A stretch of DNA of 64,000 nucleotides from Clostridiales bacterium (GCA_003507395.1 DNVW01000016.1:12726-76725), one strand, 5' to 3'. Positions 10,330-40,284 are shown, counted from the stretch's first letter. Program-made: numbers and translations. Notes: a model not told the origin generated them from the sequence alone.

Positions 10330-10330
10330 A

Positions 10331-10356: not shown

Positions 10357-10377
10357 ATGTACTATATACAGATATAT

Positions 10378-11316: not shown

Positions 11317-11491
11317 ACTGAGTCATCCTTTCTGAAGATGTGAAAATATTAATATTTTACACACATTTCTCATTGGTAAATTATAAAACTATAATACTAC
11401 ATTTATTATTTTTTATCAAGAAAAATGTATTTATTTTTTACATAAAGTATTATATAATTAAAAAAATTAAAGTTGGGAAAAGAGGAATAGT

Positions 11492-23529: not shown

Positions 23530-23620
23530 AGATGTGAGAAATAAAAAAGTCCTAGCTAAACTGAAGTGATAAAATGAAAGTAGACACAAAAAGTCTGCTT
23601 TCATTTTTTTGTGCCAATAG

Positions 23621-23718
23621 GTGCCAATAGGGACGGGGAATTTTGGCACAAAAAATTTTAATTTAACAAAAAGCGAGTGAAAATGAAATTTCACTCGTTC
23701 TGGCGCAGATGGGCTTAA
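23621..23718. repeat. ~97-bp att-proximal repeat A. It consists of the GTGCCAATAGGGACGGGGAATTTTGGCAC hairpin, a CGAGTGAAA-ATGAAA-TTTCACTCG hairpin, and a degenerate tRNA-Leu 3' core (tggCgcagatgg at 23701-23712).
   Basis: It is ~96 percent identical to 29747-29844. It is preceded by a 10-bp tandem duplication, gtgccaatag x2. Confidence 0.7.
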
Positions 23719-23815
23719 ATTTTTACTCATCTTTTCTTACACCTTCAGGCTTTTTCAAATTTCGTATCTTTGTCCCGACATTGTCGGGAGATATTTTCTA
23801 TTCAATTATTTATTA

Positions 23816-24121
23816 TTATTCTACTTCGATTATCTTATTATTTTCTAGTAGTTTTTCATATTTCTCGTTCATCTTGTCCATATATTCTGTGTATTTATAC
23901 ATTTGTTTTTTCTGATGATAATCAAATATATCTCCATAAATATTAATTGTAGTTTGAATATTAGCATGTCCTAGAACTTTTTGCAATGTTGCTAAATCCA
24001 TACCAGCCTCAATACATCTAGTTGCAAAAGTATGCCTTAACATATGAACATGCACATCACTTGTCTTTTCATTTACATAGTGAACTCCTTTCGATTTAAG
24101 TTTGTTTTGTAAAGTTACCAT
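23816..24121 (-). pseudogene. Tyrosine recombinase/integrase, C-terminal ~100-codon remnant
   Basis: [41 protein letters not shown] aligns to the C-terminus of the integrase at 29979-31427. The N-terminal ~380 codons are missing. Confidence 0.75.
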
Positions 24122-24123
24122 CT

Positions 24124-24152
24124 ATTGACATTATTTCTTTAAAATTATATAA
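24124..24152 (+). promoter_or_regulatory. Consensus sigma-A promoter (TTGACA-17-TATAAT)
   Basis: Seen directly in the sequence. It abuts the truncated integrase and points toward the 24291 gene. Confidence 0.55.
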
Positions 24153-24290
24153 TATAGATATAGTTATAAGATACTTGATACATCTTATTGAAATAGTATA
24201 GAGACTTAGTTGTTACAACTATATATAACATATTATTATAAAAGTCAAGTAGTTTTCTAAAATTTTATAAGATTTTTTATGAGGTGTGAA

Positions 24291-25226
24291 ATGATTAGAG
24301 AAGAAAAGATTGAATTTACTGCAAAATGGTGCAAGTACAGTAAATATATAATTGAAAAGAAAGACGATAAATATTACATATTACCAGATAAAAATGCAAA
24401 ACCAAGTACATATGATCCATTTGAAGTAAAAAATCAAATATTAAAAGATTTATTAGTAATGGGTAAAGAATCAGTTGGTAATGAAATGTATAAACTTGGT
24501 AATAAGGAAGTAACAATTGAAGCACAAAGTAAAATGGAAAAATTCCAAAATTTAGTGTTTGAATTTGTAAGTAATTATGGATTACTTGGTAATTTTAGAT
24601 ATCTGCCAGAAAATTATGAATTTATGGATAATGGAGATATCCCTGTAAATTTAGGATATAATACTTCTATAAGTGCATTGGAATTTGAAAAGAAATATTT
24701 TTGGAAAGATTCAAAAATGGACTGGTCAAGTACAATGAAAGCAAACGATTATCACAGAAATACTGGTCTTAATGATGATTTTGAACAAATTGAAGGAGAT
24801 AGACTTAGTGATGTAATTTTTTCAAAAAATTATGCTGAAACTATTGCAGAAATTATTAACTTTGCAACAATTATATACAATAAAAAGCTTTTAATTTGTG
24901 CATACTTATATGATGATGTATCAGAAGATATAAGACAAGTATATCAAGAAAGTATTACTGGAGATAGCTTAAAAAAGCCAAATATTTCATATAGTGCTGA
25001 AGATGGACAAATAAAATTCAAATGGAATTTTATGTCTTTAAGTGAAATAATAGAAATTATCTTACTTTTAAATGAAACATCTGGAAGAACTGAAGTAAAA
25101 CTATGTAAGCATTGTGGTAAACCATTTATTGCTGAAAACATTAAAGCTGAATATGACACTATACAATGTAGGAATAGAGAAAATATAAACAAAAGCAGAC
25201 AAAAGAAGAATAATTATATTGAGTAA
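24291..25226 (+). CDS. Hypothetical protein with a C-terminal CxxC...C Zn-ribbon (paralog of 32549-33481)
   Basis: It is clearly homologous to the element B protein (KYxKYxI...YYIxPDK...; C-terminal CKHCxKPFIAxN...CRN). The RBS is gaggtg. It was not recognised as a named family. Confidence 0.45.
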   Translation: MIREEKIEFTAKWCKYSKYIIEKKDDKYYILPDKNAKPSTYDPFEVKNQILKDLLVMGKESVGNEMYKLGNKEVTIEAQSKMEKFQNLVFEFVSNYGLLGNFRYLPENYEFMDNGDIPVNLGYNTSISALEFEKKYFWKDSKMDWSSTMKANDYHRNTGLNDDFEQIEGDRLSDVIFSKNYAETIAEIINFATIIYNKKLLICAYLYDDVSEDIRQVYQESITGDSLKKPNISYSAEDGQIKFKWNFMSLSEIIEIILLLNETSGRTEVKLCKHCGKPFIAENIKAEYDTIQCRNRENINKSRQKKNNYIE

Positions 25227-25250
25227 ATTAAAATTATTTGGAGGTTGAAA

Positions 25251-26246
25251 ATGGAAATTAATTATCCACCATATAAAATTACTAATAAAATGTTAAACTA
25301 TGTATCAGATATAATGAAAAAAATTGGAGAAACAAATTATTTTGAAAATTTAAATAGATATCCAGAATTAAGAAGAAAATCAAGAATTAAATCAATTCAT
25401 TCTTCACTTGCTATTGAAAATAATCAATTATCATTATTTCAGGTTGAAGATGTAATAAATGGAAAACCAGTAATTGGAGAACAAAAAGATATACAAGAAG
25501 TAAAAAATGCTTATGAAGCTTATGAACAAATTGATAAAGTAAATCCATATTCTGTAGATGATTTAAAGAAAATACACGGAATATTAACTTTCTTAATTGA
25601 AAAAGATGCTGGTAAATTTAGAAATCATGGCGAAGCAGTTTATGATGGAGATATACAAATATTTATGGCTCCTCCTTACAAAATGGTTCCTACATTAATA
25701 GATAACTTATTTAACTGGATGAATGAAGTTAAAAACACAATAAATCCACTTATTTTATCGTCTATATTCCATTATGAATTTGTTTTCATACATCCTTTTC
25801 ATGATGGAAATGGTAGAACAGCAAGGATATGGCAAACTGCAATCTTATCACATTGGGAAAAAGCATTTACCTACTTACCTATTGAAAGTATGATTAGAAA
25901 AAATCAAGAAGAATATTATAAAGCTATTCAAAATTGTAACAATGCAGGAGAATCAACAGAATTTATAGAGTTTATGTTAAAAATTATTGATGACACAATA
26001 GATGAATTGATGAACTCAAAAGAAATGAGAGATAAAGCTCAATTACTACTTTCTGATAATGAAATGAAAATAATTGAATGTATTAAAAGAAATGTTTTAA
26101 TAGGTGCAAAAGAAATAATTAAAGAAACTAATATTGCTGATAGAACAGTAAGAAGAATTTTAAAAAAATTACTAGATAATAATACCATTGAAACAATTGG
26201 AAAAGGTGAAAAGGACCCTAATAAAAAATATAAAATTATTGAATAA
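25251..26246 (+). CDS. Fic-family protein with a C-terminal winged-helix DNA-binding domain
   Basis: Fic motif HPFHDGNGRTARIW. The C-terminus is wHTH-like (IIECIKRNVLIGAKEIIKETNIADRTVRRILKKL). Confidence 0.75.
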   Translation: MEINYPPYKITNKMLNYVSDIMKKIGETNYFENLNRYPELRRKSRIKSIHSSLAIENNQLSLFQVEDVINGKPVIGEQKDIQEVKNAYEAYEQIDKVNPYSVDDLKKIHGILTFLIEKDAGKFRNHGEAVYDGDIQIFMAPPYKMVPTLIDNLFNWMNEVKNTINPLILSSIFHYEFVFIHPFHDGNGRTARIWQTAILSHWEKAFTYLPIESMIRKNQEEYYKAIQNCNNAGESTEFIEFMLKIIDDTIDELMNSKEMRDKAQLLLSDNEMKIIECIKRNVLIGAKEIIKETNIADRTVRRILKKLLDNNTIETIGKGEKDPNKKYKIIE

Positions 26247-26260
26247 TGGCATAGTACTGA

Positions 26261-26458
26261 CATAGTAATGGCAGAGTTAAAAGTTATTTTTACAACTTCC
26301 CGACCATTTTTGATGAGTATATATTAGAAAATGGTCATGTAGACTTAAATCATTTCATTCGTTTTTATGAAGAAAATAAATCTAAGTATATTATCATTGA
26401 TGAATATAATACTGAATTTACTCTAGATGAGTTCTTAAGGGAAGTAAATTTAAAATAA
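26261..26458 (+). pseudogene. Start-less C-terminal ORF fragment beginning at the TAATGGCAGAG junction
   Basis: A 65-codon open frame (...YFYNFPTIFDEYILENGHVDLNHFIRFYEENKSKYIIIDEYNTEFTLDEFLREVNLK*) has no Met and a stop immediately upstream. Confidence 0.35.
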
Positions 26459-26483
26459 ATGTAATTTATAAAGAGGTTTAAAA

Positions 26484-26747
26484 ATGGAATTAAAAGATTT
26501 AGAAAAAGAAATTGAAAATATTAAAACTAGAAATAAAAAAGTTGAATTAGATAAAAAATGGGAAACGAGCTTAACTAGAAAAATATGTATTTGTATATTA
26601 ACATATATAGTTGTAATTGTCTATTCATACATAGTAAGAAATTACTCTAATATACTTTTAAGCTCACTTGTCCCTGTTATTGGTTTTACATTGTCAACAT
26701 TATCATTAAAATACATAAGAAAAATATGGGAGAAGAATATAAAATAA
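26484..26747 (+). CDS. Small two-TM membrane protein, hypothetical
   Basis: Hydrophobic segments are present. No motif was found. Confidence 0.3.
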   Translation: MELKDLEKEIENIKTRNKKVELDKKWETSLTRKICICILTYIVVIVYSYIVRNYSNILLSSLVPVIGFTLSTLSLKYIRKIWEKNIK

Positions 26748-26769
26748 ATATATTTAAGAGGTATATAAA

Positions 26770-27294
26770 ATGTTATATGTAATTAGACATGGACAAGTTG
26801 ATACAAATATAAAAAATCAGGTTAATGGCTGGAACGAGGAAAAACTTAATTCAGTAGGAATACAACAAGCTATAAATGCAGGTAATCAGCTTAAAAATAT
26901 AAAAATCGATGTAGTATTTTGTTCACCATTATTGAGAACAAAACAAACCTACAATAATTTAAATATAAAAGACATTCCAATTTTTTATGACGATAGGATA
27001 AAAGAAAGGAATTCTAATAGTATGGTTTATGCTGATGTAGAAACATTAGATAATAATATTTGGTATGATGGAACAAAAAATATTATATATAAAGATTCTG
27101 AAGGATTTAAGAGTATAATAAATAGAACTGAATCAATATTAAATGATATAAAAAATAATTATAAAGACAAAAATGTATTAATAGTCACTCACGGAGATGT
27201 TTGTAAAGCTGTTTATTTATATTTCAATCCAAATACCCAAGACATTAGTAAATTCCAACAAAATAATTGTGAAATAGTTTGTTATAAATTTTAG
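26770..27294 (+). CDS. Histidine phosphatase family protein (phosphoglycerate mutase-like)
   Basis: N-terminal catalytic RHG motif (LYVIRHGQVDTN) and the THGDV second His motif. Confidence 0.65.
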   Translation: MLYVIRHGQVDTNIKNQVNGWNEEKLNSVGIQQAINAGNQLKNIKIDVVFCSPLLRTKQTYNNLNIKDIPIFYDDRIKERNSNSMVYADVETLDNNIWYDGTKNIIYKDSEGFKSIINRTESILNDIKNNYKDKNVLIVTHGDVCKAVYLYFNPNTQDISKFQQNNCEIVCYKF

Positions 27295-27302
27295 GGGTGT
27301 TT

Positions 27303-27962
27303 ATGGGTAAAAAAAAGAATATAATTTATACAATTTTTATTATGGTATTTTCAATTATATGTGGAATAATATCAAAAGATTATTTTTTAGGAACTATAAT
27401 ACTTGCGAGTGGACTTCTTAATTCTTACTATGCAAGTGTTGGCAAAATATATAATTACATATTCGGAGCAGTTTATTGTGCTTTAAGTGGTTATGTTTGT
27501 TTGAAAACAGGTTTATATGGAATAGCCATTTTATCTTTTGCAGTTTATTTTCCATCACAAATACATGGGTATTTTAGTTGGAAAAATAAAAAGAATGAAA
27601 ATAAGGAAGTTAAAGTTAGAGGTTTTACTTTAAAAAACTCAATAATAATTATTTCTTCTTGTATTATTGGAAGTTTATTATTAGGGCTATTATTAAGTAA
27701 AATACCAACTCAACAATTAGTCTTTTTAGATTCTAGCAGCAATATTTTAAATCTATGTGGCATAATCCTTATGAATTTAAGATTTAAAGAATGCTGGGCT
27801 GTATGGTTATTTAATAATACTGTTGATTTAATAATCTGGGTTGTTAATTATATGAATAATACAGTAAATAGTACAATGATGTTATTAGTTTCAATTGGTT
27901 ATTTATTAATAAATATATATGGTTTAATAAAATGGTATAAAAAAAGTGGGTATGAAATATGA
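27303..27962 (+). CDS. pnuC: PnuC-like nicotinamide riboside transporter
   Basis: A ~220-aa polytopic protein with a terminal W..Y..K-rich tail. It lies adjacent to a nicotinamidase-like gene. The assignment is by similarity of topology and sequence feel, not a strict motif. Confidence 0.5.
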   Translation: MGKKKNIIYTIFIMVFSIICGIISKDYFLGTIILASGLLNSYYASVGKIYNYIFGAVYCALSGYVCLKTGLYGIAILSFAVYFPSQIHGYFSWKNKKNENKEVKVRGFTLKNSIIIISSCIIGSLLLGLLLSKIPTQQLVFLDSSSNILNLCGIILMNLRFKECWAVWLFNNTVDLIIWVVNYMNNTVNSTMMLLVSIGYLLINIYGLIKWYKKSGYEI

Positions 27963-28273
27963 AATATTGTATGATTGAAGTTGCCTTTGGAATTAAGAAA
28001 GAAGCAAATAAAGCAGTTGATGAATTATTAAATAAAAGATTAGTTGCAAGTTGTCAAATATTAGAAAGTAATAGCATTTGGAATTGGAAACAAAAACGAG
28101 AACAAAGCAAAGAATATATAGTTTTAATGAAAACACAGTTTTATTTACAGAATAAAATATACAATGTAATTAAAAATATACATAGTTATGAGTGTTTTGA
28201 GTTCGCTGTTTTTGAATTAAGCAGTTGTAATGAAGATTATTTAAATTGGATAGAATCAGAAACAAATAAATAA
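27959..28273 (+). CDS. cutA: CutA1-like divalent-cation tolerance protein
   Basis: VASCQIL...IWNWKQ...EYIVLMKTQ...IHSYECFEF...YLNWIESET matches the CutA signature pattern. Confidence 0.6.
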   Translation: MKYCMIEVAFGIKKEANKAVDELLNKRLVASCQILESNSIWNWKQKREQSKEYIVLMKTQFYLQNKIYNVIKNIHSYECFEFAVFELSSCNEDYLNWIESETNK

Positions 28274-28289
28274 TTGAGGAGAATAATAA

Positions 28290-28772
28290 ATGAATAGATT
28301 ATTATTAGTAATAGATGTTCAAAATGATTTTATAAATGAGCATACAAAAAATATTTTAACAAAAATAAAAGAATTAGTGGATTCAAATAAATATGATTTA
28401 ACTGCTTTTACTAGATTTATCAATGATGAAAATAGCATTTGGTATAAAAAATTAAATTATAAAGGCTGTATGACTAAAGAAGGACAAGCAATTGCTATTA
28501 ATACTAAAAACAATAAAGTATTTGATAAAAACATATATACTGCAGTAAATGATGAATTGAAAAAATATATTCAAAAAAATAATATTTCTAAAATATATTT
28601 ATGTGGCTTTGATACAGATGCTTGTGTTCAAAAAACTGCTATTGATTTATTTGAACAAAACTATGATGTATATGTTTTAAAAGATTATTGCATGAGCCAT
28701 TTAGGTAAGGAAACTCATGATTTTCATATAAATAATCTTGCAAGATTAATAGGAAAAGATAGAATTATTTAA
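28290..28772 (+). CDS. Isochorismatase-family hydrolase (nicotinamidase PncA-like)
   Basis: LLVIDVQNDF and the catalytic Cys context CGFDTDACV are present. Confidence 0.7.
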   Translation: MNRLLLVIDVQNDFINEHTKNILTKIKELVDSNKYDLTAFTRFINDENSIWYKKLNYKGCMTKEGQAIAINTKNNKVFDKNIYTAVNDELKKYIQKNNISKIYLCGFDTDACVQKTAIDLFEQNYDVYVLKDYCMSHLGKETHDFHINNLARLIGKDRII

Positions 28773-28773
28773 G

Positions 28774-28796
28774 CACTTCAAATTGAAGTGTTTTTT
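28774..28796 (+). terminator. Terminator (cacttcaa-a-ttgaagtg followed by a T6 run)
   Basis: It belongs to the same CTTCNNATTGAAG palindrome family as 2860 and 4901. Confidence 0.6.
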
Positions 28797-28830
28797 AGTT
28801 TAGATCTTCACATAATAGGAAAAGCTGAAT

Positions 28831-28859
28831 TTGCAAAAATTCACATAATGTGGTATAAT
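28831..28859 (+). promoter_or_regulatory. Consensus promoter TTGCAA-17-TGgTATAAT (extended -10)
   Basis: Seen directly in the sequence. It drives the GC-rich ORF. Confidence 0.55.
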
Positions 28860-28936
28860 TATATTGTATCACGTAAGTGAACATATCAAAAGTCCCTAAA
28901 TGGGCAATGCTTGCAATGCAAGCAAAAGGAGTCAGC

Positions 28937-29599
28937 ATGAGTAACGAAATCGCTAACAACGCATCCTTCATCTTTGCAGGTAAGAAGCCGAAATTCTTAA
29001 ATCTCGTGTACATTTCTTGTGAAGGCGACATTCAGAAACTTCCTGAAGATGTTCGGACTGCAGTTTCGCTGGAACCAGGAGGAGCAATCCGCGTAGAATC
29101 CAGAGAATATGCAAATGGAGAATTGATTCCCCTTCCTGCATACATCGCTTGGGAAAAGGAGGACAAGGACAAAGAAAGATGTCCTCATGGTTGGAATCTT
29201 TGGAACAAGGCGAATGCTTCCGCACAGCTTTCCGAAGGATTCCTCGAAGAAGTTGATGGTAAATTCCGTCAGACGAAGATAGTGCCCCTTAAAGCACAAC
29301 TCTTCACTGGTGAAATTCCCGAAATCTTTCTCGAGATGCCCCGTTTTGATGGGCAGGTAACCGTTGAAAACGGAAATCTGTTTATCAAGACTCCGTGGGG
29401 GATTTCCAATTGTAAAGCTGGTAACGGTTTTGCAATTGTATATGGTTTGGGAAATGACGCTGAAAAGCCTAAATTCTTCGGAATGCTTGATGGGAATATT
29501 CTTACCGTTGGAACAGCTTCGTTTGAAGATTACTACCACGTCACGGAGGATGGCAAGGTGATCGAAACTCTTCGCGAGTATTTTGAGAGCCTGCATTAA
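28937..29599 (+). CDS. Hypothetical protein encoded by a GC-rich (foreign-composition) cassette
   Basis: G+C and codon usage (GGC, CGC, CTG) are strikingly higher than the surroundings. The RBS is aaaggag. A long antisense ORF is typical of GC-rich DNA. No family was recognised. Confidence 0.5.
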   Translation: MSNEIANNASFIFAGKKPKFLNLVYISCEGDIQKLPEDVRTAVSLEPGGAIRVESREYANGELIPLPAYIAWEKEDKDKERCPHGWNLWNKANASAQLSEGFLEEVDGKFRQTKIVPLKAQLFTGEIPEIFLEMPRFDGQVTVENGNLFIKTPWGISNCKAGNGFAIVYGLGNDAEKPKFFGMLDGNILTVGTASFEDYYHVTEDGKVIETLREYFESLH

Positions 29600-29654
29600 A
29601 CCCCCAAATAGTCAACTGTGACTTGAGAAGATAGCTATCAACTCTAAAAACAGC

Positions 29655-29697
29655 CAAGAGCCAAGTCGTATACAAACGCTAGGCTCTTGTTTTATTT
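29655..29697 (+). terminator. Terminator (caagagcc ... ggctcttg followed by a T-run)
   Basis: An 8-bp stem and a T-tract at the end of the GC-rich block. Confidence 0.55.
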
Positions 29698-29746
29698 ATA
29701 TTTTAAGTCAGATTTAAACTTCTTTCAGATATAAAGTTAAATAATA

Positions 29747-29844
29747 TGCCAATAGGGACGGGGAATTTTGGCACAAAAATATTTTAATTTAACAAAAAGC
29801 GAGTGAAAATGAAATTTCACTCGTTCTGGTGCAGATGGACTTAA
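29747..29844. repeat. ~98-bp att-proximal repeat B (attR arm). It has the same two hairpins as repeat A and ends in a tRNA-Leu 3' core copy, tggtgcagatgg (29827-29838).
   Basis: The 12-bp core is identical to tRNA-Leu 3' end 41805-41816. Confidence 0.7.
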
Positions 29845-29894
29845 TAAAACTCCCATCTTTCTTAGTATTTCTCATAGATTTACAGCTTACCGTA

Positions 29895-29946
29895 TTTTTG
29901 GAACTTAGTTCCAAATTATTCTTATTAAATTTTTTAGTTCCAAATT
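29895..29946. repeat. TTTGGAAC / GTTCCAAATT 10-bp repeats (3 copies) just inside attR
   Basis: The same decamer recurs as direct repeats at 41645-41667, at the other end of the element. Confidence 0.45.
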
Positions 29947-29978
29947 TTCAATTTTATATCATATAAAATTCTATATTA

Positions 29979-31427
29979 TTATTTTAATTTTAAATATTCT
30001 TCTTCAAATCTTTCAAAGTTTTCTTCTAATATAGTATTTGTATCTTGCATATACTTTGTGTATTTTTGATTTAATTCCTTTTGTCTTAAATATGAGTAAA
30101 TATATCCATAAGTGTTTATAGTTGTAGTAATGTCTGCATGACCTAGAATTTTTTGTAATACTTCAATAGCAATTCCAGATTCTATACATCTTGTTGCAAA
30201 AGTATGCCTTAGCATATGAGTATGTGTATCACTTGATTTATAATTAACATAGTGTATTCCTTTTTTCTTACTAACTTTTTTATGTTTTAATGTTATAACT
30301 CTAAGTCCTGCATTTTTACATATTATTTTAAATGCTGAATTAACTTGTCCATCAGTATAAAAGTTGCCACTAGGTTTAGAAAATAATACATCATATTTAT
30401 TTTCTTTGTATTGTTCTAATGCTTTTTGTATCACTGGTACTGCTAAAGGTGTAAGATCTATTGTTCTTAATCCATTTTTAGTTTTAGTTATATCTCCAAT
30501 TACAACTTTATTGTTTATATCTTTTGTCAATGTTCTTCTAACATTAATGCTTCCAATATTTCCTACAATATTTATATCACTAGGTCTTAATGCAAGTATT
30601 TCTCCTATTCTCATTCCAGTATATAAAGCAATTAGTAATATTAGCTTATATTTTGATTTATGAGTTTTTAGATATTCTGTTAAAACATATTCTTCTTTTC
30701 TGGTAAAAGCATCAACCTTTTTATCTTCTTTAAAACTCTCTGGCTTTTTAATTCCCTCTCCAATTAAAAATGGATTTTTTTGAATAATACCATTTGCATA
30801 AGCAATAGAAAAAGCATTTTTAATTTTACTATAATATTTGTCTATTGAAGAATTAGATTTTGCTCGTTCACTTTCTAAATATTGTTTTATCTGGTTAGCT
30901 GTAACATTCTGTATTGGAATATTTGCGAATTTATAATTTCCAATTGCTTTTATAGTTTGCATATGCCTATTATAAGTGTTTGGTTTAATTTCCTTGTTTC
31001 TTACTCTTTTGGTTTCGTATGATTCACATATTGAAACAATAGTTGCATCTTTCTCTTTAGTTTTCTCAGTTTTCCCATGAATAGAAACATCTTGGATATA
31101 TTCAAGCATTTTATTTAAGGCTTCTTCTTTTGTTTTTCCATTAAATTGCATCCTATTTGTATCTTTTGTTGTGGATTTTCTGCCATTTGTTAAAAGCTCT
31201 ACTTTGAATTTGGGATAAATATAGAATTTATCGCAATGTTCTTTATCTTTACAATTATTGCAATCTTCACATTCTTTCATTTTGAATAGCTTTTTTCTAT
31301 TAGCACAAAATTCTTTGTGATTACAATTACTACAAGTAGGGCATATTGGTCTATCATTGGCTTTTCTTTTATCTTTAGTAGTATACTCGTGTACAGAATA
31401 GTCTTTGCCTTCAACTAAAGTTTTCAA
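29979..31427 (-). CDS. int: Tyrosine-type site-specific integrase with a Cys-rich N-terminal extension
   Basis: R..HxxR..Y catalytic region ([10 protein letters not shown] ... TINTYGYIY) and multiple CxxC motifs at the N-terminus. Confidence 0.85.
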   Translation of the reverse strand: MKTLVEGKDYSVHEYTTKDKRKANDRPICPTCSNCNHKEFCANRKKLFKMKECEDCNNCKDKEHCDKFYIYPKFKVELLTNGRKSTTKDTNRMQFNGKTKEEALNKMLEYIQDVSIHGKTEKTKEKDATIVSICESYETKRVRNKEIKPNTYNRHMQTIKAIGNYKFANIPIQNVTANQIKQYLESERAKSNSSIDKYYSKIKNAFSIAYANGIIQKNPFLIGEGIKKPESFKEDKKVDAFTRKEEYVLTEYLKTHKSKYKLILLIALYTGMRIGEILALRPSDINIVGNIGSINVRRTLTKDINNKVVIGDITKTKNGLRTIDLTPLAVPVIQKALEQYKENKYDVLFSKPSGNFYTDGQVNSAFKIICKNAGLRVITLKHKKVSKKKGIHYVNYKSSDTHTHMLRHTFATRCIESGIAIEVLQKILGHADITTTINTYGYIYSYLRQKELNQKYTKYMQDTNTILEENFERFEEEYLKLK

Positions 31428-31580
31428 ATTTCTTCCTCCTTTAAAAAATTTAAAGGAATACCTTGTCCGTTTTTCATCTCTTGTGATATAATCATTAAAG
31501 AGATAACGAAAAGATATCCCATCATTTCGGTCTAATCTCTGTTAGAGAATTTAGAAGTTCCTTTTCTAAGTTCTCATTTT

Positions 31581-31796
31581 TTATCTTAATGTTATAGATT
31601 TTGAATAGTCGTGTCTTTCCTTTAGAAATTCTTTAAAAGCATCTGCTTCAATCCACCAACTTCTACCAACTCTTTGAGCAGGGAATTCATTATTGTTAAA
31701 TAATTCTAGTCCTTTCTTTGGACCAATTTTTAACAACTGGCATACATCTTTTAAAGAATATACTTTCATTCCAGCAAGTTCTTGCATAAATATCAC
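31581..31796 (-). CDS. xis: Excisionase-family HTH DNA-binding protein
   Basis: KVYSLKDVCQLLKIGPKKGLELFNNNEFPAQRVGRSWWI matches the excisionase/MerR-like HTH pattern (RxWRI). Confidence 0.55.
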   Translation of the reverse strand: MIFMQELAGMKVYSLKDVCQLLKIGPKKGLELFNNNEFPAQRVGRSWWIEADAFKEFLKERHDYSKSITLR

Positions 31797-31850
31797 TCCT
31801 TTCGCTTTAAAATTTGGTGCAAAAAATACCTCATCACTAAAGATGGGGTA

Positions 31851-32300
31851 TTACCTTACTTGTTCTTTATAAAATCTTTTTACTTTTCTTTTGTATTTTT
31901 TTGGTAAAACATATGAAGTTTTTATTTTATCGTCTAATATTAAATTTCCGTCATTATCTTGTTTATAAACACTTATATTTGATTTTACAAATGCATCAGT
32001 AGAAATTCCAAAAGAATGTCTAGACATTTGCCTTGCATCACTATCTAATAAAGCCTGTAGTTTTTCGTAATCTTCTTTATCAGATTTATCTTTTTTTCTT
32101 TCATAAGTTTCTAAATATTCTTTATTATATTTAGCTTTTCTTAATTTTGCTTCTTGATGTCTTCTTTGCTTTTCTTCTGGATATCTATCATCATTTCTAA
32201 CAACTTTTGAAACATATTCGCTACTCACTTTAAAAAACTCTGCAATATCTTTTTGCTTCATATGCTCTTCAAAATACATTTTTAAGATTTCTTCTACCAT
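31851..32300 (-). CDS. Small HTH-containing protein (sigma-70 region 4-like), hypothetical regulator
   Basis: N-terminal KQKDIAEFFKVSSEYVSKV helix-turn-helix and a basic C-terminus. Confidence 0.35.
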   Translation of the reverse strand: MVEEILKMYFEEHMKQKDIAEFFKVSSEYVSKVVRNDDRYPEEKQRRHQEAKLRKAKYNKEYLETYERKKDKSDKEDYEKLQALLDSDARQMSRHSFGISTDAFVKSNISVYKQDNDGNLILDDKIKTSYVLPKKYKRKVKRFYKEQVR

Positions 32301-32548
32301 TTTTTACCTCCTTTCTTGGTTGATTTTTATACTTGCTAAATTTTAAGCATAATAATCCTATATATATTGTACTTACAAATTTTGCAAAAATTATTGCTTT
32401 TATTTACTTTATGTAGTACAATTTAAGTATGATAAAGTATCTAGCAACAATCTATGTTAATAGCTAAGCACACTAAAATAATAACATAGTAATTTTTGAA
32501 AGTCAACAACTTTTTTAAAATTTTTTAAGAAATTAGGGGGAAATTATA

Positions 32549-33481
32549 ATGATTAAGGAAAAGAATCCCAATTATAAAGGGCTTTGGGCTAAATATAAAA
32601 AATATGAAATTTTAAAAATAAATAATGAATACTATATTAGACCAGATAAAAAAGCTTCTTATGAAATCTATGATGTGTTTGATAAAGAAAAAGAACTTCT
32701 TGTAGATTTTCTTTTAATTGGTAGAGAAGCTATGAATTATGCAGATATAAATGATGCTAATTGTGATTTAATGTCTACAGAAACTAAATATCAAGATATG
32801 ATTTTAGATTTTGTAAATAAATATGGTATGTTTGGAGAACTTACATATAGATTATTAAATACTCACATAATTTCATCTGGTAAAGCACTAACTCAAGGAT
32901 ATTCTAATATTGATGAAGTGTCTGCTAGTACATATATAAAACCATATTTTATTGGTAATGAAGATATACAAAGAATAGATTTCGATCATGGAGTTAATGA
33001 AGATATATTAAAATATGTATATGGCTCTGATAATCCAAATGGAGATTTATTAAATAGCTTTGATAAAGGCGAAGATTTTAGTATTGTATTTTCTAAATGC
33101 TATACTGAAAAAATAGCTAATATTTTAGTAATGGCTAGAGCTTTATATAGAATATTTAATTCAGTAGAAAATAGCTCTTGGACTGAAAATGAAGATAAAA
33201 AAGCAATATATCAAAAATATGCAAATATGTTTAACCCTAACAATGTAGCATTTAATTTTGATTTTGCAGATGAAAAAACATTTTTAAATTGGAATTTCAA
33301 TTCTCTATTCCAAGCTATTGAGCTAATACTTGCTTTTAATGAAACAAATGAAAGAAAAGAAGTTAAAATGTGTAAACATTGTTTTAAACCATTTATTGCA
33401 AAAAATTTAAATAGTGATTATGATACAGCAAGTTGTAGAAATGTAGCAAATGTTTATAGAAGCAGAGCAAAAAATAAATAA
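32549..33481 (+). CDS. Hypothetical Zn-ribbon protein (paralog of 24291-25226)
   Basis: It is homologous throughout to the element A protein. The RBS is aggggg. Confidence 0.45.
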   Translation: MIKEKNPNYKGLWAKYKKYEILKINNEYYIRPDKKASYEIYDVFDKEKELLVDFLLIGREAMNYADINDANCDLMSTETKYQDMILDFVNKYGMFGELTYRLLNTHIISSGKALTQGYSNIDEVSASTYIKPYFIGNEDIQRIDFDHGVNEDILKYVYGSDNPNGDLLNSFDKGEDFSIVFSKCYTEKIANILVMARALYRIFNSVENSSWTENEDKKAIYQKYANMFNPNNVAFNFDFADEKTFLNWNFNSLFQAIELILAFNETNERKEVKMCKHCFKPFIAKNLNSDYDTASCRNVANVYRSRAKNK

Positions 33482-33638
33482 ACTAAAAAAGCAAATAACC
33501 TTTAGACTAAATCTAAAGGTTACTTGAAATCAACTTGACCGTCTTTCAGGTCTAAATGTCTTATTTATTGAGTGTATTTCAACTCATAACAGAATTGCTT
33601 CTGTTAATATTATTATACTCAATTTATTAAAAAAAATC

Positions 33639-33670
33639 AACAAAATGTTAAAAATTTTTAACATTTTGTT
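33639..33670. promoter_or_regulatory. Perfect 32-bp palindrome (aacaaaatgttaaaaa|tttttaacattttgtt) overlapping the -35 region. Candidate operator.
   Basis: Seen directly in the sequence. A tataat lies at 33685-33690. Confidence 0.5.
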
Positions 33671-33719
33671 AAAAAATATGTTAATATAATGCTAATTTAG
33701 CTTTTAGGAGGCATAAACT

Positions 33720-34226
33720 TTGAATATAAATGATGAATTAAACAAACTAAATACAAACCAACAACAAGAATTAGAAAAATGGTTTGCTGAACAAATATTT
33801 AAATTAAATAAAGTAAATAAAAATGAACAACTAAACTATGTGCCATATGTTACTAGAAAACAAGTTGTATGGGTGGATTTTGGAGTAAATGTTGGTCAGG
33901 AATTAAATCATTCACACCCTGCTGTTGTACTTTATTCAAGGCCAAATGTTGGTACAGTTCTTGTTGCTCCACTAACAAGTAAATCCAACACATCTGATGT
34001 TGTTATTGATATTGGAGAAATAGAAAATTTTGAAGGGTTTTCATATTGTAAGATAGACCAATTACGAGCAGTAAGTAAATTAAGAATACAAACTAAAAAG
34101 CATGAAAATAAGTACTATAATAACTACAATAGAGAAACTGGAGAATATTCTAATCCAGAATTATCTACAGAACAAATGAATTTAATAGATAAAGCTATAC
34201 AAGAATTGAAATTTAAATCGAAATAA
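33720..34226 (+). CDS. PemK/MazF-like toxin-fold protein with a ~50-aa N-terminal extension (TTG start)
   Basis: VVWVDFGVNVGQELNHSHPAVVLYSRPNVGTVLVAPLTSK resembles the MazF/PemK core. There is a strong aggagg RBS 8 nt before the TTG. Confidence 0.5.
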   Translation: MNINDELNKLNTNQQQELEKWFAEQIFKLNKVNKNEQLNYVPYVTRKQVVWVDFGVNVGQELNHSHPAVVLYSRPNVGTVLVAPLTSKSNTSDVVIDIGEIENFEGFSYCKIDQLRAVSKLRIQTKKHENKYYNNYNRETGEYSNPELSTEQMNLIDKAIQELKFKSK

Positions 34227-34347
34227 ATAATGGCAAAGTTTTGGCAGAGTAATGGCAGAGCTTTATCTTACTGCTTAGATAAAAAAGCAGTAAGTTTAGC
34301 AGTATGAAATGACAAAGTATAATTCATTAAAGGAAAGGAAGTTTTTA

Positions 34348-34821
34348 ATGGAGAATATAGTAATTAGAAAAGCAATTTTGGAAGATGTTAGCTACATCCA
34401 AAATTTAAATAACGAATTATTTAAATTGGAAAAAGAAAACTATGACACAACTTTAGTTTTGAACTGGGCTTTAACAGAAGAAGGCAAAGATTATTTCGAA
34501 GATTTAATCAAAAATCAATATGTCATAGTCGCAACATTAGAAGATAAAATTATTGGTTATCTAGCAGGTTCAATAAATGAAAAAGGTAGTTATGAAGAAA
34601 TACAATATGGTGAAATTAATAATATGTTTATAAAAGAAGATTACAGACTATATGGCATTGGCAAAAAACTAATAAATAATTTTAAAAATTATTGCAGAAA
34701 TAATAATATCAGCAATTTAAAAGTGGTTGCAAGTTCAAAAAACAAAAATGCAATAGAGTTTTATAGAAAAAATGGATTTGATGATTTTAATTTAACTTTA
34801 ACTATGAATATTGGAGATTAA
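34348..34821 (+). CDS. GNAT-family N-acetyltransferase
   Basis: Acetyl-CoA binding motif (RLYGIGKKLINNF) and GNAT fold length. Confidence 0.7.
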   Translation: MENIVIRKAILEDVSYIQNLNNELFKLEKENYDTTLVLNWALTEEGKDYFEDLIKNQYVIVATLEDKIIGYLAGSINEKGSYEEIQYGEINNMFIKEDYRLYGIGKKLINNFKNYCRNNNISNLKVVASSKNKNAIEFYRKNGFDDFNLTLTMNIGD

Positions 34822-34824
34822 GAT

Positions 34825-35622
34825 ATGGATGGATTTTATGTAGGAGATATAATTGGCAATTCATATACTCACGAAAATGAGAAATATAACTTAAAAACAA
34901 AGGATTTTGAACTATTTACAAATAGAAGTAAATTTTCAGATGATACTATTCTATCTTTTGCAACTATATATTGGCTATTGCATACACATCATGAATCTAC
35001 TGAAATGATAACAGTTTTAAAAAAATTTTACGAAGAATACCCAGATAAAATTCCAACTATCTATGGAGAATCATTTGTAAATTGGATTACAAGTGTAAAA
35101 GATGAATACAGAAAATCGTCTGGAAACGGTGGTGCAATGAGGTCTTCTGTTATCGGATGGTATGCTAAAGATATAGAAGAACTTAAAAAATTAGTATATA
35201 AAGCAATTATGCCTACTCATAACGAAGAAGGAGCAATTAAAGCATCCGAAATCGTTGCCATTTCTATATTTCTATTTAAAAATAATTATACTAAAGATGC
35301 AGTATTGAATTATATTGAAAGTAATTATAATTATGATTTACATGAAAATATAAATTCATATAAAAACTATTACACATATACATCAGATGCAAAAGAAACT
35401 GTAAGACCTGCGTTAATTGCTTTCTTTAACTCGACTGACTATGAAGATAGTATTAGAAATGCGGTATCTTTTGGTGGAGATACAGATACTATTACTACAA
35501 TAAATTCATCAATAGCAGAAGCATATTATAAAGAGATACCTAAAAATATTTTAGAAAAAGCAATAAAATACTTACCAAGAGAATTCATTAATATATTAAA
35601 TGAATTCAAAAAATATATATGA
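34825..35622 (+). CDS. ADP-ribosylglycohydrolase (ARH/DraG family)
   Basis: FSDDT, GNGGAMR and GGDTDT metal-binding motifs. Confidence 0.75.
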   Translation: MDGFYVGDIIGNSYTHENEKYNLKTKDFELFTNRSKFSDDTILSFATIYWLLHTHHESTEMITVLKKFYEEYPDKIPTIYGESFVNWITSVKDEYRKSSGNGGAMRSSVIGWYAKDIEELKKLVYKAIMPTHNEEGAIKASEIVAISIFLFKNNYTKDAVLNYIESNYNYDLHENINSYKNYYTYTSDAKETVRPALIAFFNSTDYEDSIRNAVSFGGDTDTITTINSSIAEAYYKEIPKNILEKAIKYLPREFINILNEFKKYI

Positions 35623-35644
35623 TAAAAAATGTTAAAAGGATTTT

Positions 35645-37051
35645 ATGAATATGGAAGAATTGAAACAAATAATTGATAATAAATGTGTAGAATTTAAAGG
35701 GTTAAAAATATATACTGGATGGTTTTATGATTTTGCAGAGATGCTTTTACAACAAGGGTATACTCAAGAACAAATAAGTAATATATTAGAGCAGATAATG
35801 AGTACTGATTGTATGGAAAATATGAGTGGAAAAGGTATGATGAAGTATTTTGGAAACGTACAACCTGCTATTGATAATGAAAAAGCCTTTTTTGATTATA
35901 TAAAAAGCAAATTAGATATACAAAATCCAGAATACCTTGAAAGTGGATTACAATATGCATCACAAGAAACTAAAAATGTAGGAAATTTTATTGATGCTTT
36001 TATAAAATATGTTGTAATAACCAATTTCGAAGATTTGCAACTTCAATATAAAGACCAAACAACAGAACATTGGGAGCAAATGCTTGTTAGTTGTTGTTTG
36101 GGAAATTTTAGTTTAAGTACTATGCTATGTGAAGCCGAATCAGATAAAATATATTTTGATGAACTTCATACTAGAAAAAATTTAACAGGTACTAGAATTG
36201 GTGCTGTTTTATTTAAAAAATTAATGGAAAAAATACACAATGAATTCCCTGACAGAGATTTATATACATTAAGATTAAAAAAAGATAATGAAGGTGCTAA
36301 AAGATTTTATGAAAGAATGGGTGGAACAGTATATGACTATGGAGATGAATCACAATTTGGTGTAGTCTATAAAAAAGAAGATATGGAAGAATTATTTAAA
36401 AAAGAGGTCGTTCCTCCTACTTTATATCCTACTAAAAAAGAAGAATTTTTAAATAGTTTAAAAGTTAACATTACTAATAAAGAACCAGATCCATTTCCAT
36501 CAGATGAAGATATTATTGAAAAAATGGATATTAATGATAAGTTTTATAGTTTTGACATGGATGATATTGATAAAAAAATAAAGATTCCAAAGCTAGCCAA
36601 AAATGGAGAACAGTTATATTTATATCGTAGAAGTATAAGAAATAGACAATTAGGCTCTAGTAATTCTAGAATAGATTCACAATATTTTATTTTAAATAAT
36701 TCTGGACAAATTGTTGGCAGAGTTCCTGTTTCAGTTTTAGAGCCTTATTCATTAAGTATGGATTATTGGATACGAGATGAATTTCAAGGACAAGGCATTG
36801 GGACTGTGGTTTTAGAAGAAATAGTAAAACAAATTTACGATGGAAAAGAATTCGATGGAATAGACTGTATATCAGCTAAATTTCCAGAAGCAAATAAAAC
36901 ATCAATACAAAATATTAAATTAGAAATATCAGACGATAACGAAGCTAGTATTAAAATTGCTTCAAAAAATGGATTCAAAAAAGCAGGTGAACGATATTAT
37001 TCACTAACTTTAAATAACTTTCTTGAAAGAAATCAAGAAAGAGCCAAATAA
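35645..37051 (+). CDS. Protein with two GNAT-like acetyltransferase domains plus an uncharacterised N-terminal region
   Basis: Two acetyl-CoA motifs are present: LTGTRIGAVLFKKLMEK and FQGQGIGTVVLEEIVKQ. Confidence 0.5.
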   Translation: MNMEELKQIIDNKCVEFKGLKIYTGWFYDFAEMLLQQGYTQEQISNILEQIMSTDCMENMSGKGMMKYFGNVQPAIDNEKAFFDYIKSKLDIQNPEYLESGLQYASQETKNVGNFIDAFIKYVVITNFEDLQLQYKDQTTEHWEQMLVSCCLGNFSLSTMLCEAESDKIYFDELHTRKNLTGTRIGAVLFKKLMEKIHNEFPDRDLYTLRLKKDNEGAKRFYERMGGTVYDYGDESQFGVVYKKEDMEELFKKEVVPPTLYPTKKEEFLNSLKVNITNKEPDPFPSDEDIIEKMDINDKFYSFDMDDIDKKIKIPKLAKNGEQLYLYRRSIRNRQLGSSNSRIDSQYFILNNSGQIVGRVPVSVLEPYSLSMDYWIRDEFQGQGIGTVVLEEIVKQIYDGKEFDGIDCISAKFPEANKTSIQNIKLEISDDNEASIKIASKNGFKKAGERYYSLTLNNFLERNQERAK

Positions 37052-37078
37052 ATAACTGTATTTATTCGGCTCTTTTTC
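37040..37078. terminator. Bidirectional terminator (agagccaaataaata ... tatttattcggctct)
   Basis: A 15-bp stem with one mismatch, followed by a T-run. Confidence 0.6.
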
Positions 37079-37079
37079 T

Positions 37080-37859
37080 CTAATATCCGCCATCAATTGT
37101 AAGAACTTCTCCATTAATATAAGTTGATTCTTCGCTAGATAAAAAATAGATTGTATTGGCTATTTCGCTTGGTGTAGCAAATCTGTTTAGGAATATTTTC
37201 TTATTTTCTTCTTCAATATATTCTTTTGGTAAATCTTTATTCATATCTGTATCTGCCCATCCAATAGCTATAGCATTTACTCTTATATTTGGTTTGAATT
37301 GAAATGCCAAATCCCTTGTTAAACTCTGCAATCCAACCTTGGAAATATTGTAGTCAATAGATTCTGGTGCAATAACCTTTGTTCCATTTGTTGATGATAC
37401 ATTAATAATTGAACTTCCTTTTTTCATATATTTAGAAACTTCTCTAGATACAATAAATGCACCTAAAACATTTACTCTAATTGTATTCTCAAATTCAGAT
37501 ACTGTTGCTTTATAAATATCTCTATCAAAAACTATACCTGCACAATTCACAAGTACATCTATTTTTCCAAATCTATCTATAATCTTTTTTATACCACTTA
37601 TTATTTCTGCTTCGTTTGAAACATCCATTTCTACAATCATTGTCTGAATTCCATATTGCTTTTCAACATATTCTTTTAACTTTTTAGCATCTTCTTCATT
37701 GTTAAATTCAAAATCGCCATCAACAAATTTAAGTTTTGCCTCTTTTTCACTAGATATATAATTTATAACTACATTATAACCTTTTTTTGCAAATTCAATA
37801 ATTGTTGCTCTACCAATTCCTCTTGAACTACCTGTAACTAAAACTACTTTATTTTCCAT
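37080..37859 (-). CDS. Short-chain dehydrogenase/reductase (SDR) family oxidoreductase
   Basis: TGSSRGIG Rossmann motif, the NCAG motif and the YxxxK catalytic site. Confidence 0.8.
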   Translation of the reverse strand: MENKVVLVTGSSRGIGRATIIEFAKKGYNVVINYISSEKEAKLKFVDGDFEFNNEEDAKKLKEYVEKQYGIQTMIVEMDVSNEAEIISGIKKIIDRFGKIDVLVNCAGIVFDRDIYKATVSEFENTIRVNVLGAFIVSREVSKYMKKGSSIINVSSTNGTKVIAPESIDYNISKVGLQSLTRDLAFQFKPNIRVNAIAIGWADTDMNKDLPKEYIEEENKKIFLNRFATPSEIANTIYFLSSEESTYINGEVLTIDGGY

Positions 37860-37882
37860 GTTTTCACTTCTTTCTAATACTT

Positions 37883-38413
37883 CTAATTAATTTTTTTCAT
37901 ATATAATCTTCTTAAAAATCCATTTGATAGTTTTGTTTCCTTTACAAACTCTAGTCCTATTTTTTCCAATGTTTTACAACTTGCTACATTATCAGGATGT
38001 GCCATTGAAATAATATAGTCAAAATTTAATTCTTTTGCAAGATTCATTTCAAGTGTTTGTAATTTAGTAGTAATTCCTAATCCTCTATATTCTGGCAATA
38101 CTAAATTTCCACCTAATTCACATACTTTGTACTCAGTTAAATCAAATTCCTTTTTAAAATCTTCTAACATATCTTGTGAAACATATAATTGTGCCATTCC
38201 TACAAGTTTATTACCATCATAAGCTCCATATAATGGTGCATAGTTTACTTCATCAAACATACTATCTAATTCCCATTGTTCATATGGAATAAAATGATTT
38301 TGGTCTGGTAATCCACTTAATACTATATCTATAAGTTTAAATAACTGCTCTTTGTCTTTTTCTTCAATCTTTTTATATGTTAATTCCATAAAATTGATCT
38401 CCTTTATAATCAA
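37883..38413 (-). CDS. GNAT-family N-acetyltransferase
   Basis: EYRGLGITTKLQTLE acetyl-CoA motif. Confidence 0.7.
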   Translation of the reverse strand: MIIKEINFMELTYKKIEEKDKEQLFKLIDIVLSGLPDQNHFIPYEQWELDSMFDEVNYAPLYGAYDGNKLVGMAQLYVSQDMLEDFKKEFDLTEYKVCELGGNLVLPEYRGLGITTKLQTLEMNLAKELNFDYIISMAHPDNVASCKTLEKIGLEFVKETKLSNGFLRRLYMKKIN

Positions 38414-38488
38414 AATAATTATGACTATATATTACCATTTTTTACTCTTTTTATCAAGTAACTGAGAAATACAATTACTAAAAAAATA

Positions 38489-40118: not shown

Positions 40119-40284
40119 AAATTATCATCTCCAATCTCTAATATTTTTTTATAAAACTTTTCTAAAGTTTTGTTTAAAGTATATATTTTATAATTTGTAC
40201 TTTAAGAATTGTGCGGTAGTACAAATTCATGGCTTGCTTTATACATAAAAACAACAATTGTACTACCACACGCCAGAGTTATTT

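Follow-up and report, generated by a model that had tools for sequence, protein, structure and literature searches.

A tRNA-Leu hotspot in a Clostridiales genome that probably holds two related mobilizable elements with swappable defence and toxin cargo

We analysed a stretch of 64,000 nucleotides from a Clostridiales bacterium (GCA_003507395.1 DNVW01000016.1:12726-76725; this whole stretch is called the window below), in which two paralogous genes for a zinc-ribbon protein, DUF-A and DUF-B, are each followed by a different toxin-like gene. The window is likely to contain a tRNA-Leu(taa) hotspot occupied by two related integrative mobilizable elements (IMEs) in tandem, islands A and B, with DUF as a regulator belonging to the element backbone and the Fic and PemK/MazF-like genes behind it as swappable cargo. 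The original prediction had described a defence or addiction hotspot with a conserved backbone, a swapped effector and a fixed 11-mer boundary, and had seen in DUF a candidate for the partner, sensor or immunity component that goes with the variable toxins. The features it named were found at, or within one base of, the positions given, the second 11-mer interval being off by one. Loci and strains used for comparison carry L numbers.

Two related islands in tandem at a tRNA-Leu gene

The integration site and its copies are the following.

41805-41892, minus strand: tRNA-Leu(taa), the integration target (ARAGORN; Rfam tRNA, 61.9 bits; empty site in L001)
41805-41816: attachment (att) core TGGTGCAGATGG within tRNA-Leu, right end of island B
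29827-29838: att core TGGTGCAGATGG at the A/B junction, left end of island B (L001 junction; three-way alignment)
23596-23712: left junction of island A, with TGCCAATAGG twice (23611-23631), a tRNA terminator hairpin and a degenerate copy of the tRNA-Leu 3′ end

The last 12 nucleotides of the tRNA-Leu gene read TGGTGCAGATGG on the plus strand. They are repeated at 29827-29838 and, in degenerate form (core TGGCGCAGATGG), at 23701-23712, in the copy of the tRNA-Leu 3′ end that lies at the left junction of island A. Both repeats directly adjoin the 3′ end of an integrase gene. The 23596-23712 region forms with 29761-29844 a direct repeat (D2, 88% identity), which was aligned three-way with the real tRNA end. 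In strain L001, which is 99.3-99.8% identical, window position 29838 is joined straight to 41802, and 29839-41801 is missing. Window 29839-41804 is thus a discrete insertion of about 12 kb, the complete island B, in a genome of about 25% G+C. Apart from its DUF and PemK/MazF-like genes, described below, it carries the following genes.

29979-31427, minus strand: tyrosine integrase, 482 aa, with a Cys-rich N-terminal extension (Pfam Phage_integrase 3.7e-23, SAM_5 3.4e-08; PHROG 1 integrase 6.7e-62)
31581-31796, minus strand: excisionase-type HTH_17 protein, 71 aa (Pfam HTH_17 7.4e-08; TIGR01764 excisionase domain 7.4e-06, slightly under the cut-off)
31851-32300, minus strand: helix-turn-helix (HTH) protein "SIG", 149 aa, sigma-70 region-4-like, divergent from DUF-B (Pfam Sigma70_r4 1.8e-04, under the cut-off)
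34309-38413, both strands: further cargo, namely GNAT, ADP-ribosylglycohydrolase, a 468-aa GNAT-containing protein, SDR (minus strand) and GNAT (minus strand) (Pfam; called genes in L085)
38489-39832, minus strand: MobA/VirD2 relaxase (PF03432; Pfam 4.6e-38)
39753-40118, minus strand: NikA/MobC (Pfam 1.3e-12)
40285-40635, minus strand: DUF6664 (Pfam 1.1e-11)
40680-41039, minus strand: TnpV (Pfam 1.8e-31)
41054-41605, minus strand: RepA_N (Pfam 3.5e-27)

Island B has its own recombinase and excisionase, it is an att-bounded insertion for which an empty site is known, and its mobilization and replication module (38489-41605, minus strand), which ends beside the tRNA gene, includes a relaxase without conjugative pore genes. 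No type IV secretion or coupling-protein domain was present among the other open reading frames (ORFs) of these 12 kb, by Pfam and called-gene labels. With a recombinase, att repeats and a relaxase but no secretion system, island B is by definition an IME, and from its gene content it is predicted to be mobilizable by a helper element. The N-terminal 130 residues or so of its integrase are Cys-rich (CPTCSNCNHKEFC...CEDCNNCKDKEHC) and lie outside the coverage of the integrase profiles; this extension may be a zinc-binding, arm-type DNA-binding domain.

Island A, at about 23713-29826, is an older, decayed relative of island B, from which most of the integrase, the excisionase and the mobilization module have been lost. 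Besides its DUF and Fic genes it consists of two parts.

23816-24121, minus strand: integrase remnant, a tyrosine recombinase reduced to its C-terminal 101 aa (Pfam Phage_integrase 2.8e-15, at 121-168 of the 172 profile positions)
26277-29826, plus strand: rest of island A, variably truncated among strains (ORFs; Pfam labels)

The DNA of the integrase remnant is 85-88% identical to the 3′ end of intact 483-aa integrase genes in L233 and L236. In L233, an intact relative, int and xis are followed by a DUF gene (89% identical to DUF-A), Fic and, further on, relaxase, MobC, DUF6664, TnpV and RepA_N genes. According to the alignment of the two, island A derives from an L233-like IME by deletion of xis and of the 5′ part of int.

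The rest of island A (26277-29826) holds a frameshifted gene remnant, genes for an 87-aa protein, His_Phos_1, a PnuC-like NMN transporter, CutA1 and isochorismatase, and at its right end a G+C-rich ORF of 220/240 aa, followed by a copy of the tRNA flank and terminator. The cargo at 26770-28772 (His_Phos_1 phosphatase, PnuC-type NMN transporter, CutA1 and an isochorismatase/nicotinamidase-like protein) resembles a gene set for NAD salvage, in which PnuC and isochorismatase are truncated to varying lengths among strains (33 aa; 100, 131 or 160 aa). The G+C content is 0.40-0.43 at 28800-29800 against 0.25 elsewhere. The ORF located there (28877-29599, 220/240 aa, 40-43% G+C) has no Pfam match, is present in all strains seen, and looks like a recent foreign acquisition. 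No empty site was found for the right half of island A, since every strain found carries the 26.3-29.8 kb segment.

The locus is a tandem-accretion hotspot. Elements at this same site vary among strains of the species: L090 and L193 have CD-NTase/Cap15 (CBASS-type) cargo, L225 has an additional element to the left of island A, and a deletion in L230 has fused A to B.

Some further details of these strains and of the site were recorded. The tRNA-Leu islands with the CD-NTase and Cap15 operon (L090 1-9300, L193 6827-10525) also carry two SDRs and a phosphoribosyltransferase, and in L193 the operon comes after a Fic gene and a repeat array of the window type. The extra element left of island A (L225/L231 664-3077), a neighbouring IME, has a relaxase gene of the Mob_Pre type and an anti-defence gene, a homologue of Tad4, which inhibits Thoeris. 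In L001, a segment of about 50 bp containing TGCCAATAGG, left of the att copy, is tandemly triplicated (L001 9222-9330, compared with window 23611-23660), so that TGCCAATAGG occurs three times exactly.

DUF is a backbone gene of a tRNA-Leu-specific IME family

The two DUF genes and the blocks that precede them lie as follows.

24291-25226, plus strand: DUF-A, a 311-aa zinc-ribbon backbone protein (ABATE/CGNR-like)
32549-33481, plus strand: DUF-B, a 310-aa paralogue of DUF-A (ORF and BLASTP)
24236-24272: predicted promoter/operator block upstream of DUF-A (AAAGTCAA...TAAAATTTT), 81% identical to 32494-32530
32494-32530: predicted promoter/operator block upstream of DUF-B, holding a leftward TTGACT-17-TATTAT promoter-like site (32506 to 32478)

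The paralogy seen in the original prediction was borne out: DUF-A and DUF-B are 31% identical over their full length (BLASTP, E 2e-46), one preceding a SoFic-like Fic gene and the other a PemK/MazF-like gene. One genome per species (GTDB) was scanned; 372 relatives were confirmed, and gene maps were drawn from 80 kept loci, all 80 from uncultured gut Clostridia-like metagenome-assembled genomes. Upstream counts were made on the 55 kept loci having at least 3.5 kb of upstream sequence. An adjacent and divergent HTH gene was found in 51 of them, a tyrosine integrase at most four genes away in 49, and both in 48. Of 54 loci scanned for it, 45 have a tRNA-Leu gene (taa or caa) next to the integrase, and related elements of about 6.8-12.6 kb are bounded by 31-46 bp direct repeats of the tRNA 3′ end. 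Constantly next to HTH and integrase genes, and mostly by a tRNA-Leu gene, DUF is therefore a hallmark of the backbone in an IME family specific for tRNA-Leu, and the rightward transcription unit always begins with it.

The conserved element that had been noticed upstream of both DUF genes was recovered as well, and it is a feature of the family: a GTCAA-containing motif precedes 58 of 65 distinct DUF homologues. In one clade (L015/L007), the interval from the HTH gene to DUF contains two perfect TGTAATAT-N6-ATATTACA palindromes. Together with the overlapping leftward promoter-like site, the motif and the palindromes indicate that the conserved block of about 35 bp is the divergent promoter/operator of the element, as predicted from these sequences. 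Elsewhere in the window, at 51891-51935, an array of 11-bp period (AAAAATATTAC, 4.1 copies) upstream of the leucyl-tRNA synthetase gene, kept in all strains, resembles the TGTAATAT half-site of the IME operators; the resemblance is probably coincidental.

On the downstream side the picture is one of diversity. The three genes following each of about 70 DUF homologues encode 205 proteins that fall into 99 clusters, the commonest representative being a split HipA-like kinase (PADLOC candidate PDC-M03A). Among the systems found there are a C5 methylase/HpaII type II restriction-modification system, Dodola DolA/DolB, AriA/AbiL/Gabija-like ATPases, MADS mad3 and a PARIS-like system. Other families are HEPN, Schlafen-AlbA2, DUF4365, DUF6602, PNP_UDP phosphorylase, HD domain, zeta toxin, SUa-2TM effector, SoFic and PemK, and a Tad4 homologue, HTH_3 regulators on the opposite strand and Mob_Pre relaxases occur too. 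Thus the idea of a defence or addiction hotspot with a conserved backbone and a swapped effector stands, many of the neighbours being defence or toxin genes, and what had been missed is that the backbone is that of two tRNA-Leu IMEs.

A profile built from both paralogues retrieved 478 representatives at 50% identity, nearly all of about 280-330 aa. Pfam, NCBIfam, PHROGs and PADLOC gave DUF-A and DUF-B no family assignment, no curated threshold being passed; the weak matches were to zinc ribbons (Pfam Zn_ribbon_recom, 0.044; PHROGs phrog_13750, 0.0018). A profile search against PDB sequences returned nothing significant. The AF2 model is of high confidence (pLDDT 90.2, pTM 0.90). Foldseek found no PDB match to it at E <= 0.001, and in BFVD one unnamed protein (E 1.6e-4, TM 0.34-0.45), which is uninformative.

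The C-terminal consensus of the family, CKHCxKxFxAxNxxxEYCSxxCRNxxNVYKSR, agrees with the CGNR finger in its spacing and its basic helix. Pfam zf-CGNR matches 3 of 47 family members weakly (best 1.6e-4) and neither DUF of the window at E <= 0.1. For the ABATE/CGNR protein of structure 3H0N, its authors proposed a ligand-sensing, DNA-binding transcription regulator, itself a prediction (PMC2954205). Given the zinc ribbon and the ABATE/CGNR-like predicted fold, DUF is probably a DNA-binding, possibly signal-responsive regulator of the element.

A phage, plasmid or prophage/satellite origin of DUF was considered and rejected: two unannotated faecal-virome fragments (24-26% identity) were the only matches, there was no plasmid match, and IMG/VR held only 7 DUF loci, in differing contexts. 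The place of DUF is taken, in certain IMEs whose integrase is of the same type, by another zinc-ribbon family that looks unrelated (CKNCG[RK][YF]F[IV]P...YC...TC[RK]E[LV]G). Its members include a 383-aa protein in L193 (4595-5746) and, on the reverse strand of L097, a 210-aa ORF directly before a repeat array.

A repeat array at the boundary of the cargo

The shared 11-mer boundary is real, and it is larger than had been noted: it belongs to a 35-bp block, 86% identical between the two islands, made of three tandem 11-bp units (TAATGGCAKAG) and beginning in each case at the stop codon of the effector gene.

26242-26276, plus strand: array A, AATAATGGCATAG / TACTGACATAG / TAATGGCAGAG, from the Fic stop codon
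34226-34260, plus strand: array B, AATAATGGCAAAG / TTTTGGCAGAG / TAATGGCAGAG, from the PemK stop codon (TRF period 11, 3.0 copies)

As the original prediction supposed, the 11-mer is not a common word. In the 64 kb, TAATGGCAGAG has two exact sites (26266-26276 and 34250-34260). Allowing one mismatch raises this to 6 sites, where 1.16 would be expected; none of 100 shuffles reached this count, and four of the six are in the two junctions. Among 84 related loci the exact 11-mer occurs only in copies of the two element types of the window; beyond these elements, 80 related loci lack it.

Arrays of 2-4 units of the type yAATGrCAGAG are present in other species and in metagenomes. They follow Fic in L047/L164, L140, L143, L157/L181 and L193, the 210-aa zinc-ribbon protein in L097, and an apparent Fic 3′ remnant in L106/L208. 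Homology of the window to L047, L140, L143, L157 and L193 stops at 26268-26278, at most 10 bases from the array end, and different genes lie beyond. Since homology breaks at the array end in five independent comparisons, the array is a recurrent recombination breakpoint. A metagenome scan with a degenerate array pattern gave mostly chance matches in high-G+C environmental contigs; 18 contigs below 36% G+C were kept, and 11 were examined closely. In 7 of these 11 contexts the array comes after one C-terminal, winged helix-turn-helix (wHTH) variant of Fic, and it is absent after a Fic with another C-terminus (L233). The array thus travels chiefly with one Fic C-terminal variant. It is not family-wide: any array of 9-13 bp period within 4 kb downstream was found at only 9 of 73 DUF loci.

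No Rfam family matched the array. As a hairpin or attC site it showed no folding (single-strand z-scores of -1.55, -0.78, +0.09 and +1.06). Open reading frames beginning MAEL... inside the arrays were considered as AS1-like antitoxins and rejected, as they have 8-25 codons, are unlike between A and B, and are absent elsewhere.

What the array does is tentatively predicted: it could be an array of binding sites for a DNA-binding protein encoded by the element. More specifically it may be an operator or roadblock at which an element regulator (DUF, the HTH protein or the wHTH of Fic) controls read-through or initiation into the downstream cargo, a possibility that we rate as less likely than not. 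The 11-bp spacing would place the sites on one face of the helix, and in every context seen the array lies between transcription units. In IMEs of the L015 type, the half-site TGTAATAT of the L015/L007 clade palindromes is repeated three times with an 11-bp period immediately before the next cargo gene, at the corresponding position. The association with one Fic wHTH variant points the same way. However, the array unit is absent from the DUF-upstream regions of the window, a search for sigma-70-type promoters or terminators gave nothing above chance at or after the arrays, and island B carries the array but no Fic.

Alternatively, the array could consist of arm-type sites for integrase or excisionase, dating, as a relic or internal att, from the fusion of a small int-DUF-toxin element with a separate relaxase/RepA_N element by tandem accretion. 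Lambda-type integrases have P′ arm sites, and three phased direct repeats resemble these. The 8-mer TAWTGGCA is enriched in the window (17 sites against 7.6 expected), and 7 of the 17 sites are in the two arrays or, in inverted orientation, in the TGCCAATAGG repeats by the att copies. Coincidence of array ends with homology breakpoints, and tandem accretion at the locus in several strains, would also fit. But no att core TGGTGCAGATGG is found near either array, an intact IME with the same integrase type and a DUF-A orthologue lacks the array (L233), a comparable array in L015-type elements is about 5 kb from attR, and matched arrays at both element ends were found in none of the 80 loci. We consider this origin improbable, and on the sequence data would rank a binding-site array for an element protein above a relic att arm.

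The effector genes and their relation to DUF

25251-26246, plus strand: Fic-wHTH (SoFic-like) AMPylase, island A cargo (Pfam Fic 1.4e-19, HTH_24 4.9e-05; PADLOC SoFic 4.9e-49)
33720-34226, plus strand: PemK/MazF-like protein, 168 aa, with N- and C-terminal extensions, island B cargo (Pfam PemK_toxin 1.1e-12)

Residues 9-318 of the Fic protein match positions 17-343 of the 361 in the PADLOC SoFic profile PDLC03963, from which phage protection by this Fic would be predicted. Its translation carries the canonical Fic motif, HPFHDGNGRTAR, and an internal inhibitory-helix motif, SLAIEN, of the SxxxEN type. The PemK/MazF-like protein is extended at both ends, by about 45 residues at the N-terminus and about 40 at the C-terminus; among PHROGs it matches best a family of 237 positions labelled "antitoxin mazE-like". 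No antitoxin ORF was seen next to PemK (no ORF of at least 50 aa in 33482-33719).

Rather than being swappable cargo, Fic and PemK could be the exchangeable half of a two-gene system in which DUF is the constant sensor, antitoxin or immunity component, as the original prediction proposed. DUF-A and Fic are 24 bp apart with a ribosome-binding site between them and, from this arrangement, are probably co-transcribed; the pair is intact in all strains in spite of decaying neighbours; the first gene after DUF is very often a toxin or defence gene; and the toxicity of SoFic can be countered by a neighbouring gene, though a small and downstream one (PMC12249575).

The survey of homologues did not bear this out. 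No consistent toxin follows DUF: the orthologue that is 89% identical to DUF-A (L233) precedes Fic, and that which is 86% identical (L236) precedes an unrelated HipA-like trio and a Tet(M)-like gene, both IMEs being intact. As near-identical orthologues precede either module, DUF is a backbone gene and not a toxin-specific partner. Its constant neighbours are instead integrase, excisionase and the HTH gene, integrase and HTH gene together in the 48 of 55 loci already mentioned. The 99 neighbour clusters include complete restriction-modification, Dodola and PARIS-like systems, gaps between DUF and the next gene range from -41 to more than 600 bp, and some next genes are on the opposite strand. 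In island B, PemK is 239 bp away from DUF-B, past a hairpin with a 16-bp stem (33492-33526) and with a promoter-like site of its own (33658-33687). Fic has its own SxxxEN inhibitory motif, and in L193 Fic and an array of the window type follow the different, 383-aa zinc-ribbon protein and not DUF. No PADLOC model matches DUF. A type II toxin-antitoxin pair has a small antitoxin adjacent to its toxin; DUF has 310 aa, PemK lies at the distance just given, and DUF is paired with Fic or PemK only in elements of the two window types. A partner role of DUF is accordingly unlikely.

We give about as little credit to a bolder reading, in which DUF would be a signal-responsive master regulator, not recognised before, coupling the state of tRNA-Leu IMEs, a family widespread in gut Clostridia, to the expression of any defence cargo behind it, a generic driver of swappable modules, and the phased arrays would be cis-acting cassette boundaries promoting exchange, that is, a new, non-integron cassette system. 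Chance or simple sequence as the source of the shared 11-mer and of the paralogue arrangement can practically be dismissed: short A/T-rich tandem repeats are frequent in a genome of 25% G+C, but no shuffle reached the observed count, the array units are comparatively G+C-rich, and arrays of 2-4 units are conserved at similar positions in other species and in metagenomes.

Proposed role of DUF

In the reading that we prefer, two tandem IMEs with DUF as their backbone regulator, the targets of DUF would be the divergent promoter region, the cargo operon headed by it, or both. Fic and PemK would occupy the first slot of a variable defence and toxin cargo region, and would be swapped by recombination, not tuned to DUF.

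Four observations weigh against this account. In the clade of the window, the third zinc ligand of DUF is Asp and not Cys (YDT instead of YCS). The array, whose units do not recur upstream of the DUF genes of the window, cannot be tied to DUF. The right end of island A holds about 90 bp nearly identical to the chromosomal flank on its left, which simple integration does not predict. Finally, the DUF-A/Fic pair has stayed whole and unseparated in all strains inspected, although integrase and several cargo genes have decayed, and this persistence fits a cargo-linked role better than that of a pure regulator of excision or transfer. There is thus some case for a functional link between DUF and the cargo, such as control of cargo expression: a regulator driving or gating the cargo operon would explain both the turnover of cargo and the persistence of the DUF-A/Fic pair.

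Significance

Tandem IMEs that target tRNA genes, defence slots on mobile elements and SoFic are kinds already known, and no new kind of system is indicated. Three things are new: this family of IMEs, found in gut Clostridia that are uncultured, the ABATE/CGNR-like protein of its backbone, which had no annotation, and a portable repeat array at the cargo boundary. The analysis places an unannotated protein family in a genomic context for the first time, provides a model of it at high confidence, suggests a regulatory role for it, and would extend the ABATE/CGNR fold, itself poorly understood, to mobile elements.

DUF is a clean marker for small (about 7-12.6 kb) mobilizable islands at tRNA-Leu genes in uncultured, low-G+C Clostridia of the human and animal gut. 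Because the slot after it is hyper-variable and rich in defence and toxin genes, DUF is usable as an anchor for the discovery of new defence genes. The same anchor could also reveal anti-defence (Tad4 homologue) and resistance (Tet(M)-like) cargo in organisms that are not yet culturable. On the L236 IME, a gene at 9541-11541 encodes a 666-aa protein of the Tet(M)/EF-G-like, ribosomal-protection type; the family may therefore carry tetracycline resistance as well.

Comparison with known systems

IMEs of Firmicutes with tyrosine integrases, tRNA targets, relaxases and variable cargo have been reviewed (PMC5704250) and are detected by ICEscreen (PMC9585547). The DUF elements resemble them in having a tyrosine integrase and an excisionase, integration at a tRNA 3′ end, direct-repeat att sites, a relaxase (MobA/VirD2 or Mob_Pre) without type IV secretion, a RepA_N/TnpV module, tandem accretion at one site and variable cargo. 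They differ in that their backbone includes an unannotated zinc-ribbon protein of about 300 aa and that their hosts are uncultured, low-G+C gut Clostridia. A limited literature search found no paper describing the DUF-bearing family.

It is known that mobile elements gather defence systems in fixed slots, as in the hotspots of P2 and P4 (PMC9122126) and in chromosomally integrated mobile genetic elements (PMC10201445). Here too, a fixed slot between backbone genes gathers anti-phage and toxin-antitoxin systems that differ among near-identical elements. Unlike in P2 and P4, however, the carrier is an IME and not a phage or satellite, the slot starts directly after a putative regulator gene, and in one sub-lineage a short repeat array marks where the slot is bounded.

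Compared with ABATE/CGNR proteins (PF07336 and PF11706; 3H0N, PMC2954205), DUF is longer (about 310 against 180 aa), has no significant sequence match to them, and has the motif CRN rather than CGNR, with Asp as third ligand in the clade of the window. Those proteins belong to chromosomal stress loci, whereas DUF is found on a mobile element; the function of ABATE is itself only predicted. The Fic protein shares with SoFic (PADLOC; PMC12249575) a whole-length model match, the HxFx(D/E)GNGRxxR motif, the N-terminal inhibitory-helix motif and the C-terminal wHTH. It is far under the cut-off of the NCBIfam SoFic equivalog (65.5 against 550 bits), and in place of an intact small downstream ORF of the AS1 type there are the array and a gene remnant.

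Integron-like attC cassettes were rejected, as the boundary is a direct-repeat array without hairpin folding; integron integrase models match the island integrase weakly (46.8 bits, cut-off 265 bits). A parallel for the gene order is the Tn916-type module, with an HTH gene (orf7, sigma region-4-like), xis and int in this order on one strand and a regulator in divergent position, as in the DUF elements. Unlike Tn916, the DUF elements integrate specifically at tRNA genes and have no conjugation genes, and their divergent gene encodes the zinc-ribbon DUF protein in place of an HTH_3 repressor.

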